Shown here in pieces: positions 3,839-48,271 of a DNA stretch of 64,000 nt. Where the stretch lies: IMG/VR virus record IMGVR_UViG_3300042268_000564; one strand, 5' to 3'. This DNA is from a virus (lineage: Duplodnaviria; Caudoviricetes). The first letter of the stretch is position 1; each line of letters starts with the position of its first letter. A model generated the notes under the pieces. The model did not search any database, was not told where the DNA came from, and saw only the letters and a program-made list of their open reading frames with translations. Position numbers and translations under genes: made by a program.

Positions 3839-4009
3839 CTATAGCATATTTATTACAGCTTCCTCGCCAAGCTCTCGGAGACGTTCATAATATATCTTCT
3901 CTTGAGCTTGCAAAGAATGAATAAGCTTTTCCTTTAAGTCGTCTATCTTTGCCATCTCTATAAGAAAGGCTTCGATATCTTTATCCCGACATTTTGTATT
4001 CCGTTTCAC
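3839..4009 (-). CDS. 56-aa protein ending AVINML* (not in the ORF track)
   Basis: GAGG SD, GTG start, downstream of promoter 4038-4065. Confidence 0.65.
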   Translation of the reverse strand: MKRNTKCRDKDIEAFLIEMAKIDDLKEKLIHSLQAQEKIYYERLRELGEEAVINML

Positions 4010-4284
4010 GCCATCCTCGTATTATAAAGCTATAATTATTATAAATCCTTTAGAGTGGTTGTCAAGCAATGTGTATCTTATATGCCCTCAAGCTTTGGAA
4101 GAAACACGGCGGACGTCTCCTTTTTACATTCCAACCCGGATTCCATGTGATGCTAATAACGCCTGAAGGTCGGATTTTACATGGAACAACCCGGAGCAAT
4201 GATGGACGTTGGTGGGTAGAGGAGATAAATGTAGAGGCTTTTGCCCGGTGGCTATCGAGACGAAGTCCTAGAAGGAGAGAGTAA

Positions 4285-4836
4285 ATGCGAGCAAATTCAG
4301 CAGAGTATCATGCAATGATGAGACAACTTGCTTCTATGATGGACAGAGGTATGGATGAAGCGGGTAAGGATATAAAATGGGCAAAGTCGATTTTAGATAA
4401 AACAACGTTAGATTTGAAAGACCCGGTGATGTTCAATTGTTTCGTCCGGGACAGGATAGACGCAAAGGCAGACACCTTGTTTCATATGCAGCACATGGAT
4501 AAGATGCCCTCGAATGTATTTTACACGCTTCAATTTATATATTTGAAGTATGATTTTATTGAGGCACATCTTAAATGTCTGATAGATAGATTTGAAGGTG
4601 CGCCGTATGGCGACGACCGGGTCAAGACAATCGTTCGGATGGCGGTGAAGATGGTTCGGTCTGGAACTTTGTCTGATGTTAATGATTCTTTGAATCCGTC
4701 GTGGTATGTCCCGAATCATTTGGGATTATGGATAAAGATGGTAATAGCTCTGTGGGACTTATACTATGGTGATGCAAAGAATTATTTGCGTGTGAGAGAT
4801 GAATTACGAGCTGCTTACGAGACTGCTGAGGATTAA
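4285..4836 (+). CDS. hypothetical protein
   Basis: 183-aa ORF with AGGAG SD. Confidence 0.7.
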   Translation: MRANSAEYHAMMRQLASMMDRGMDEAGKDIKWAKSILDKTTLDLKDPVMFNCFVRDRIDAKADTLFHMQHMDKMPSNVFYTLQFIYLKYDFIEAHLKCLIDRFEGAPYGDDRVKTIVRMAVKMVRSGTLSDVNDSLNPSWYVPNHLGLWIKMVIALWDLYYGDAKNYLRVRDELRAAYETAED

Positions 4837-5117
4837 AGTAAGAACTCCTCGGCTTCTCTACGTCTGATTTCGCCGAATGTTGCAGCTACAGCCCCAACGA
4901 AGCTGTCCTGTTTGATGGTTTTGTAGGGTGTTGGAGTTCCATGCCAGCCGGGTTCGAAGAATGTTACAGTAACTTCGCCATTGTCCTTATTCGCTTCCAT
5001 GCAAATCCATTCATCAATCCACACGGTATTGGGTTCATCCTCATCAGTCTCGGTTCCCATGTCGACATAGTTGAATTCAGTTGCGGCTCTGTTAATGAGA
5101 TTAATCAATTCGTCCAT
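4833..5117 (-). CDS. hypothetical protein ending EEFLL*
   Basis: In an operon behind 5120..5419. Confidence 0.7.
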   Translation of the reverse strand: MDELINLINRAATEFNYVDMGTETDEDEPNTVWIDEWICMEANKDNGEVTVTFFEPGWHGTPTPYKTIKQDSFVGAVAATFGEIRRREAEEFLL

Positions 5118-5119
5118 TG

Positions 5120-5419
5120 TTATTTCCCTTTCAAGCGATAAGCATAGATTTCGTCTACCATACCGGAGCTTGCTGGCGACACATCTTCAATTCTTTCAAG
5201 CAAGCCCATTGAAATAAGTTGTTCCACTACGGGTGCGTTCTCACTCCAATGCTTTACAAAAAACACATCGTCGGGAAGCATATCAGTTTCTGGAAGCCTT
5301 ACGCTGATAGTAGAGAACGGCATACCTTGCTCTGTAAGCAATACTGCCATGCCGCCATCAACATAACGATTGGTAACTAGCTCTACATCATAAACCTCAT
5401 CATAAAGCTTAATCTGCAT
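5120..5419 (-). CDS. DUF4313-like protein
   Basis: FSTISVRLP...FFVKHWSEN...LISMGL pattern; AGGAGG SD; promoter 5449-5476. Confidence 0.55.
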   Translation of the reverse strand: MQIKLYDEVYDVELVTNRYVDGGMAVLLTEQGMPFSTISVRLPETDMLPDDVFFVKHWSENAPVVEQLISMGLLERIEDVSPASSGMVDEIYAYRLKGK

Positions 5420-5484
5420 TAACTTCCCTCCTGTTTTATTATAATTTTATTATAAACAGACGATAAAAAATGTCAAGTCTTTTT

Positions 5485-45902: not shown

Positions 45903-46345
45903 TCAAGGGACATACCTCACAAGGGTAATATCCTCACCTTGCATAGCCTCATCAATTATAGCAGCAATTTTATTCCAATCACCGCCAGCAAGACCTGCAC
46001 CAATCAGTGGGATTCCAATTCGCTTGCCAGAAAATTCCTGTTTCATTTTTTCAAAGCAGGACTTAACGGCATCGTAATCAACAAGTTCTTTTTTGCCCCA
46101 GTATTCAAACTGAGTATAGCAATTGACAACTGTTACATTGCCACATGCTGCAAAGGTATAAGTTCCAAGCTTTTTTTGTCGCCAGCTTTAGTGTCCTTGT
46201 CAGCATACCAAGCTTCAGGGAAAGCCAGCCGGATAGACTTAGCTATGCCAGCACCCATCTTAACGAAGCAATTGCACCCGTGGGCTATTACATCAAATTC
46301 ACCCTGTTTCGCAAGAGCAATCAAGTCACCTTTAATCTCTTTCAT
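45903..46345 (-). pseudogene. macrodomain (ADP-ribose processing) gene with a -1 frameshift at A7 46171-46177
   Basis: GDL...HGCNC..MGAGIA in one frame; NCYTQ...DYDA...PLIGAGLAGGDW in the -1 frame. Confidence 0.85.
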
Positions 46346-46767
46346 GCATTAATACTCCTTGAGGGAAACAATCTTATCTTCTTGAAAAATATCTGAGCCT
46401 ACAACATTTGTTATAGTATCTTTTGTTGCCATAGACCAATTTAATTCAGGATAATCTTTTGCCGAGATAAGTTCCTTTTTGATACAGCGCAACCTTAATT
46501 TATTGTAAAGAGCAATGTCCTCTATCAATGGTTTCCCTATGGCACACAGGATAGATTCACGTAAGGTGCTTACTATGGACACAAGCTCTCTATCTGATGG
46601 CTCAATTCTGTTCGTTTTGGACATCAGGCATTTCCTCAATGGTAACTCTTACCTTTTTACAATAAAGCTCCCATCGTTTCTTTTTATCTTTTACCATTAT
46701 TTTTACGGGTTCGTCTGTTACGGTATTCACCAGCAAATTTTCACCATCCATCGCTTGAGTAAATCCT

Positions 46768-47196
46768 TCAAATACTATCTTCATTGTTTTCTTTTTCCTT
46801 CTTTAACCCATGAACTACCTTACTTCTCTGACAATTGAAAAGTGTTGAGCTGCAACCATATCCGAAAGCAGGATTAATCCACGCACCCGGAATCTTAACA
46901 ATTTCGTCATAATGTCCACAAGCATACTGTTTATATTCGGCAGTCTCTTTATGTAATACAAGATGAACACACCAACCAGTATCAGGATTCACTGAGCCAT
47001 AAGCACAAGGAACCTTCATGCAACAGTAGCCACACATAACACAAGGATATATGGCAGCTAAATCACCCAGACTGGTCTTCGTCATTCTTGCCATCCTTGA
47101 CGGTATCGGGTTTATGGTAATCTTTAAAAGGGATAATTTTATTGCCAGATTTTTTGACAACAGGTTTTCGGTTCTTGGGTAATCTTTCAGGTACAT
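46768..47196 (-). CDS. CxxCxxCC (YkgJ-like) cysteine-cluster protein
   Basis: CVMCGYCC...WCVHL...ACGHY; start uncertain. Confidence 0.55.
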   Translation of the reverse strand: MYLKDYPRTENLLSKNLAIKLSLLKITINPIPSRMARMTKTSLGDLAAIYPCVMCGYCCMKVPCAYGSVNPDTGWCVHLVLHKETAEYKQYACGHYDEIVKIPGAWINPAFGYGCSSTLFNCQRSKVVHGLKKEKENNEDSI

Positions 47197-47544
47197 CTAT
47201 CTGTTCATTCAGGACGTCAATGATGTCATCAACGTAATCAGGCACAGATGTAAGTTTAACAACTTCAAAGTAGGTGCCATTATCGTCTATCTTACCACTG
47301 GCTTCACCAAATAATGACCATGTGCTCGTGCCTACTACATGTTTATTAACGAGCTGAAGTATGTATGCAGACATGGCAACTTTCTGCTCGTCGGTAATAA
47401 TCCCTTCCCTTACCATAGCGTCAAGGAATACCAGACGGCAACGATTTATCTCAGACATTAACTCAGTCTGATAAGCAACGTGAGATAATAATTTGTCACG
47501 GTCTTTTCCCATTAGGACAACCTCATTCCTTAAATATTACCCTT

Positions 47545-47614
47545 ATTATATAAGGTAGTTGATGGATGTCAATAAAAAAATTATATAAGGTAGTTGATGG
47601 ATGTCAATAAAAAA
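47545..47614 (-). repeat. perfect 35-bp tandem duplication of a promoter
   Basis: ATTATATAAGGTAGTTGATGGATGTCAATAAAAAA x2. Confidence 0.9.
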
Positions 47615-47800
47615 AGGGGAACAAAAGACGATACAGGGGATACACCGAGGGGGCTTTTTTAACAGGAAAGCCATATACTCATCAAGTAACATGGTCTGGG
47701 ATAAAACATATAAGCAGAGAGGTTACATGGCAAGATGTAAGCTCGTAAGTGAGAGAGAGGGGTATAGGGCTAGAACGTTACAAAATCAGGCAAGCAAGTT

Positions 47801-48271
47801 TTATAGCAATTCCATTTCATTTGGGGACGAGGGTTGTTGAATTATCACATTTGGAAACAATGCAGAAAGTGCTGATTGTAATATTGCTAATAATAACGTT
47901 GTTGGTGGGATTGTCTTTGCAAAGGCTGCCTTACTTTGTTTGCCATCAGACAGTTCATTTACAGTGAATAGTATTGGCACATTAATATCTTTTGCTGAGG
48001 CTGAATCTTGTTGCCAAAAATCACAGTCGTAACTTTTAATCACGAGTTTTTTCACATGAGAATTATCGTCTATTTGTTGCAAGTCAATTTGGCTGTCTTG
48101 CGACGATTCTTTCCCCTCAAAGAAAAATTCTATATTTGTCGCATTGTGATTTATAATTACATTTGTAGGCAAAGTAGGAACGTGTAGATTTGTCTTGTCT
48201 ACCCATACGGCAATTATGTAATGTTTTTTGCCACATTGAACTAATATGTTTTGTAGTATTGGACTTAACAA
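47801..48271 (-). CDS. hypothetical protein, ends MELL*
   Basis: TTG start with GGAGG supplied by the upstream hairpin. Confidence 0.6.
   Translation of the reverse strand: MLSPILQNILVQCGKKHYIIAVWVDKTNLHVPTLPTNVIINHNATNIEFFFEGKESSQDSQIDLQQIDDNSHVKKLVIKSYDCDFWQQDSASAKDINVPILFTVNELSDGKQSKAAFAKTIPPTTLLLAILQSALSALFPNVIIQQPSSPNEMELL

Follow-up and report, generated by a model that had tools for sequence, protein, structure and literature searches.

Which partner, if any, reads the last three residues shared by a large set of otherwise dissimilar proteins is the question raised by the left end of an uncultured jumbo phage genome. The DNA analysed here, a stretch of 64,000 nucleotides referred to as the window, forms the left end of a viral contig (IMGVR_UViG_3300042268_000564; 393,839 bp, 39% G+C, rated complete) which is present in wastewater metagenomes and whose RecA shares only about 41% identity with the best-matching phage proteins. 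Seventeen open reading frames (ORFs) of the window end in a hydrophobic residue followed by Leu, and the initial annotation took this end for an addressing signal recognised by one receptor. Genes were called with a scorer that ignores the final five codons, yielding 536 genes for the whole genome (92% coding) and 114 for the window. Positions above 64,000 are written as contig position + 933.

A strictly terminal tag on mutually unrelated proteins

A selected, strictly terminal and clade-specific peptide tag is carried by about a tenth of the proteome of this phage. About 46 proteins (54 minus about eight by chance), which are non-structural, mostly early and mutually unrelated, keep a [DE]-[ML]-L end. 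Within the window all 17 ends and stops listed earlier are present, and these [MLIV]L ends compare with 2.2 expected among the 114 genes:

3839..4009, minus strand: 56-aa ORFan ending NML, early promoter 56 nt upstream
4833..5117, minus strand: 94-aa ORFan ending FLL, non-core residue at -3
5485..6102, minus strand: ORFan ending ELL, start uncertain (81-205 aa)
10222..10698, plus strand: 158-aa ORFan ending KLL, opens the run of six tagged genes, weak paralog of 12896
10695..11162, plus strand: ORFan ending IML, start uncertain
11159..11854, plus strand: ORFan ending QML, homolog search matched itself only
11890..12417, plus strand: 175-aa ORFan ending ELL, own early promoter at 11856
12414..12899, plus strand: ORFan ending EVL, marginal member
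12896..13468, plus strand: 190-aa ORFan ending SML, weak paralog of 10222
19087..19629, minus strand: 180-aa ORFan ending EML, weak paralog of 19629
19629..20267, minus strand: 212-aa ORFan ending EIL, early promoter at 20301
20645..21094, minus strand: 149-aa ORFan ending ELL
21091..21678, minus strand: 195-aa ORFan ending NML, early promoter at 21712
27159..28253, minus strand: 364-aa ORFan ending IML, without PHROG or Pfam match
29497..29979, minus strand: 160-aa ORFan ending EML
32671..33090, minus strand: 139-aa ORFan ending NLL
47801..48271, minus strand: 156-aa ORFan ending ELL

Eight of these end in exactly ML against 0.23 expected (P 2e-10), in line with the earlier estimate of fewer than one. 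The genome-wide tabulation against a null that had been suggested at the same time reveals the enrichment throughout the 394 kb, with 54 of the 536 genes ending in [MLI]L (7.8 expected), 39 in [DEN][MLI]L (1.84 expected), 21 in ML (1.1 expected) and 25 in LL (3.7 expected), while only 2 of 1879 shadow ORFs end in [DE][MLI]L. Chance accounts for about 2 of the 17 window ends. The class as first drawn was slightly too wide: VL ends (2 versus 2.7 expected) are not enriched, the EVL end at 12899 being marginal for this reason, and neither are FL ends. Similarly, of the two residues first named for position -3, E holds, N is minor genome-wide, and D is about as frequent as E. Near-miss ends (ELI, IMI, EMM, ELM, EVM) occur at genome 388521, 390034, 390693, 334341, 303341 and 150799 and may be weaker versions of the tag.

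Selection acts on the peptide, as had been proposed from the variety of codons and stops: all six Leu codons and all three stop codons are used, and a DNA-level motif is rejected by the free variation at wobble positions. Overlaps and paralogy do contribute, with 17 of the 54 tagged genes ending in ATGA and four small paralog groups of two or three genes each (10222/12896 and 19087/19629 in the window) reducing the 54 genes to 50. Together they had been named as the explanation that would undo the finding; with both removed, the count is still 33 versus 6.5 expected (P 1.5e-13). The excess is also present for non-TGA stops, and 20 core tagged genes have no close downstream neighbour. Tagged genes are clustered (17 adjacent pairs, 5.7 expected). 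The run of six consecutive tagged genes (10222-13468) described earlier is present, with the EVL gene as its one marginal member, and the parts of it (10.0-13.5 kb) covered by contigs from four other runs are free of substitutions.

The [DEN][MLI]L motif is enriched at offset 0 alone, with 0-4 occurrences at each of the offsets 1-10. Column similarity among tagged proteins is high at positions -1, -2 and -3 (z 33, 26 and 13), weak from -5 to -8 and nil beyond -10, and the common signal is thus limited to the last 8-10 residues. The seven residues preceding the tag are polar (p 5e-6) and poor in Gly; position -6 often holds K or Q, -5 holds E and -4 a hydrophobe. Apart from the four small groups the protein bodies are unrelated by phmmer, so that neither the homologous bodies of an expanded paralog family nor the Gly of a helix cap is found. 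Among 55 tagged proteins Pfam identifies one WGR domain and two weak matches to domains of unknown function (DUF), the PHROG scan is nearly blank, and an ESM Atlas search with a 368-aa member gave no match. The earlier remark that no recognisable enzyme is tagged agrees with these Pfam and PHROG scans, in which no carrier is a recognisable DNA enzyme. The carriers are small and soluble, a transmembrane-like stretch being present in only 2 of 54. In the predicted structure of the WGR member the tag is a terminal helix with a predicted local distance difference test (pLDDT) score below 50, so that the model does not pack it against the domain. From the strictly terminal position of the motif we infer one reader that binds the free C-terminal end. 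The addressing-signal proposal of the initial annotation therefore stands as regards a terminal, peptide-level signal on unrelated proteins, and loses ground as regards two of its suggested readers, the sliding clamp and the capsid-loading machinery.

Genome layout and conservation of the tag

Tagged genes concentrate at both ends of the genome (16 of 65 genes at 0-33 kb, 18 of 46 at 372-395 kb) and are missing from the structural block at 142-282 kb (0 of 113). The genome contains 102 near-perfect sigma-70-type promoters, 36 of them in the window (1661-63480), with a spacer of nearly always 16 nt (96 with 16, 2 with 17). A perfect copy with a 16-nt spacer heads the unit holding the six tagged genes:

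9973..10000, plus strand: perfect sigma-70-type promoter

Such promoters are also found in relative B (14 versus 0), and they may mirror the sigma factor of the host. Of 56 tagged genes, 48 lie no more than 3 kb downstream of an early promoter. The corresponding numbers are 253 of 480 for untagged genes (p 7e-7) and, among small non-structural genes, 226 of 327 (p 0.006).

Two relatives, B (JGI 3300076587, about 77 kb walked) and C (ERR14788039), allowed orthologs to be compared; RecA and MoxR scans of viral contigs found no relatives. In B the tag is kept in all four BLAST-detectable orthologs of tagged genes at 29-44% identity, with the ends changing from EML to NML, DIL to ALL, EIL to EVL and DML to ELL. 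Two syntenic neighbours in B end in ECL and DCL, one with similarity at E 0.02 and one without detectable similarity. One ortholog in C keeps the tag (VLL) and another has lost it, and three B genes end in [MLI]L where the source-phage ortholog does not. Accordingly, the tag is conserved beyond the body and is nevertheless gained and lost. Conservation among orthologs, on which the initial annotation had made its proposal depend, thus holds for genes elsewhere in the genome, none of the four being among the 17 window genes; the window member searched for outside homologs (11159..11854) matched only itself. Homologs of the 8168 gene (L288-L291) could not be used as orthologs: their neighbours have little further in common with this region and show no tag.

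Outside the clade the tag is not enriched. A 400-kb sample of a Riflebacteria-type chromosome contains 1 such end (1.1 expected), and seven other ClpX-bearing huge phages, sampled over 190-400 kb each, contain 0-4 (0.7-1.9 expected) and no other strongly enriched hydrophobic end. These seven include the cultured Agrobacterium phage Atu_ph07, and five of them have a ClpP-family match. LIN ends in the control sample were recognised as a linker artefact.

Candidate readers of the tag

Among the readers first suggested, a degradation machinery has gained most, in that both clpX and clpP are present in the genome, scattered from each other and from the trigger factor gene; as the reader itself ClpXP remains a candidate only.

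genome 147417-148676: clpX
genome 306304-306999: clpP
genome 325504-326874: trigger factor

The phage ClpX (419 aa) is full length, with the zinc-binding domain, the pore-1 GYVG motif, the IGF loop for ClpP docking and Walker B, and the Ser-His-Asp triad of ClpP is intact. In a tree ClpX is placed as sister to Candidatus Riflebacteria ClpX (support 100/100) and ClpP is 61-65% identical to Riflebacteria ClpP, which makes Riflebacteria the likely host or donor. At the equivalents of the carboxylate-holding residues of E. coli ClpX (PMC7652416), phage ClpX has Ser at 199 (a hydroxyl), V154, Y153, R228 and V202. The exchange E205Q beside pore-2 is fixed in all three ClpX proteins of the clade and is found in 9 of 185 others. 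A clade-fixed Pro-to-Glu change is also seen in Walker A. As for Riflebacteria (L116-L147; L148-L162), the RKH loop of ClpX carries Asn in place of His, though the ssrA tags are canonical, and no clpP match lies within 3 kb of their clpX loci.

The leading reading, tentative but plausible, is that the tag serves as a C-terminal degron through which ClpXP removes early proteins at a set time. As in C-terminal degrons generally, the motif is limited to the free C-terminus, the tail is accessible on unrelated proteins (polar stretch, unrelated bodies, low-confidence helix in one model), and a competent protease with intact ClpX and ClpP motifs is available, availability not being the same as recognition. 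S. mutans ClpXP reads terminal AAL, VTL, ETV and LPF, the first three via the zinc-binding domain (PMC10782952), so that a Leu end is possible for a ClpXP degron. Moreover, bacteria generally avoid hydrophobic C-termini, which reduce protein levels in part through degradation (PMC7246954). The phage tag resembles known ClpXP C-degrons (ssrA, PMC7652416; S. mutans, PMC10782952 and PMC5143411) in its signal of three last residues, its hydrophobic end, its many unrelated carriers and the location of ClpX and ClpP in the same genome. It differs from these systems in having an acid at -3 with two bulky residues, in departing from the host-type ssrA end and in being gene-encoded on a tenth of a viral proteome, where the degron role is putative. 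Phage G and other jumbo phages are likewise huge phages with ClpX and ClpP or with ClpX/ClpA (PMC12484599, PMC7824862); in the parts of these sources available no substrates or tag are named, and the carriers compared here lack the tail.

In such a mechanism the strong sigma-70 promoters would drive early accessory and host-takeover proteins. The ClpX hexamer would then grip the terminal Leu carboxylate, directly or via an adaptor on the zinc-binding domain, and would feed the tagged protein to ClpP. Since clpX and clpP have no early promoter, the phage ClpX and ClpP would probably appear after the early phase and act as a timed switch that removes the early set; the host ClpXP, being closely related, may also serve in this way. 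More doubtful is the narrower version, in which a captured and diverged phage ClpXP, produced once the early phase is over, recognises [DE]-[ML]-L as a degron of its own, orthogonal to host ssrA, and clears about 50 early proteins as a class.

Several observations weigh against degradation by ClpXP. The tag-contact residues of phage ClpX (equivalents of S199, V202 and N230) are those of Riflebacteria ClpX, so that a re-specified pocket is not supported. Mimicry of ssrA was rejected, as 15 Riflebacteria-type transfer-messenger RNA (tmRNA) tags end in AA (the host-type tag in LAA) and the phage tag in [ML]L. A rule that ClpXP phages carry such tails was rejected as well, the tail being absent from the sampled 190-400 kb of each of the seven control phages and present in 1 of 2096 genes in 80 flanking loci; phage ClpXP is thus not generally accompanied by it. 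In relative C the tag was lost in the presence of the same ClpX type. Finally, 'early' refers to timing deduced from promoter sequence alone, and the promoter link is weak against matched small genes, being not significant at 300 nt.

It is unlikely on the present evidence, though a serious rival view, that a host protein other than ClpX reads the tag, be it an S41/PDZ tail-specific protease, FtsH, Lon, ClpC or a TPR/PDZ docking hub. PDZ and TPR domains take terminal acid-hydrophobe-hydrophobe ends, and searches of the phage with PDZ_2 and TPR_8 gave no match, so that a reader with such a domain would be the host's. An S41 peptidase occurs in all five host-type genomes tested, and when early proteins act, readers made by the phage do not yet exist. 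If the tag were a docking code in general use by the host, however, an excess of it would be expected in host proteins, which the chromosome sample described above does not show. S41 proteases are usually periplasmic, in conflict with the scarcity of transmembrane-like stretches among the carriers, and the host identity is itself inferred.

Quite unlikely, though likewise a serious rival, is a second phage-encoded reader, the MoxR AAA+ ATPase (80246). Together with its partner (81761) it would take hold of tagged proteins by their acidic tail in order to remodel, activate or cut them. The partner combines a HExxH peptidase domain with a vWA domain carrying the metal-ion-dependent adhesion site (MIDAS) motif (DUF2201-type). 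The region 78541-83674 encodes a 551-aa unknown, MoxR and the peptidase-vWA protein, each gene with its own early promoter and therefore co-expressed with the tagged set, and is conserved in relative B, which keeps the pair at 62% and 53% identity. MoxR is unmatched in 16 control genomes, seven of which were checked and are without the tail. A MIDAS site binds an acidic group, which suits the tag; such a ligand would not, however, require an invariant terminal Leu. Atu_ph07, which judging by its accession series is presumably the source of the example MoxR-vWA pair in the jumbo-phage study cited below, lacks the tail, and viral-contig scans and phage-record pair searches yielded no further carriers in which co-occurrence could be checked. 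The jumbo-phage study (PMC7824862) describes the same domain pair and proposes that such modules act in virion assembly, without describing a link to a tail, whereas here the pair is under early promoters. A Cdc48-like ATPase, the trigger factor and GroES are encoded as further candidate readers.

Docking of early proteins on the phage beta-type clamp through the tag as a weak clamp-binding motif is improbable. C-terminal clamp tails of T4 and RB69 likewise have an acid and two hydrophobes near the C-terminus. The phage encodes DnaX and a diverged beta clamp (L005:14532-15884, 450 aa), which in an alignment is 17-23% identical to bacterial-type clamps and contains a clade-specific insertion of about 30 residues. 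This genome, however, has a second tail. Nine proteins, among them NAD ligase, DNA methylases and a Mom-family protein, end in DMF plus one residue (0.08 expected):

genome 108789, 151479, 337351, 359345, 362741, 364099, 364861, 365664, 366170: second tail, [EQ]-hydrophobe-DMF-[DE]

The phage DnaE (266900) has an internal QMDMF at residue 922, at the site of the E. coli DnaE clamp motif QADMF at 920-924 (PMC3664792), and for this reason the second tail is most likely the clamp motif; it is kept in the ligase of relative B. The tag does resemble the first five residues of this motif (E at -5 in 14 of 54, p 0.003; hydrophobe at -4 in 29 of 54), and one tagged member has the nucleic-acid-binding WGR domain. 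Its likeness to the clamp consensus Q/E-hydrophobe-D/S-L/M-F is partial and lies at -5 and -4, F never being terminal. Clamp motifs work internally and on DNA-processing enzymes, and DMF is found here in both settings, on the recognisable clamp-type clients, whereas the tag ends in Leu, is enriched at the terminus alone and is found on non-enzymes. Above all, the two tails never mix (terminal [DE][ML]L 28, L plus D/E 0, terminal F 0, F plus D/E 8), which argues for two readers and weakens the sliding-clamp suggestion.

A capsid-loading or ejection signal is very improbable. The tagged proteins are small, soluble and unrelated, as is much injected cargo, and phage G virions contain ClpX and ClpP (PMC12484599). 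Capsid targeting would nevertheless call for late expression, whereas the tagged genes sit in early units outside the structural block, and some 50 different cargo proteins would be unusual. The view that no reader exists, and that the end arises from overlapping genes, from concealed paralogy or as a helix cap, is highly improbable and largely refuted: ATGA overlaps, paralog groups, adjacent pairs and a tail modelled as a short helix speak for it, but the excess outlives removal of overlaps and paralogs, bodies are unrelated with similarity gone beyond -10, the helix is of low confidence without a Gly cap, and the tail persists where bodies are about 30% identical.

Other features of the genome and biological meaning

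Further features were recorded elsewhere in the genome. At 106521-135203 (G000 C1) there are 29 transfer RNA genes, and no tmRNA was called. Between 160 and 360 kb Pfam identifies a tubulin/FtsZ-family protein, an M16 peptidase, a polyA polymerase head domain, inteins, the Cdc48-like ATPase and a DUF2828 vWA protein. The proteins at 292551, 296860, 317849 and 283991 form a family with a common basic N-terminal module of 95-120 aa and unrelated C-terminal parts; the module is a possible N-terminal address.

Literature searches, mostly of non-subscription sources, on a common phage tail, on phages with ClpX and ClpP and on ClpXP-degraded early proteins gave nothing relevant, in keeping with the earlier statement that no described system of this form was known to the annotator. 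The principle of a common tail read by one partner is known; no description of this sequence, scale or viral setting was found. Substrates for ClpX and ClpP of huge phages are not named in the literature examined, as far as it was available, and the present genome offers a concrete case. If the tag is indeed a degron orthogonal to ssrA, it would provide a new protease-tag pair for synthetic biology. Whatever the reader, a label of three residues places in one functional class about 50 early proteins that otherwise resist annotation, and with the tag and the clamp-type tail in one genome this virus appears to run two terminal address codes.

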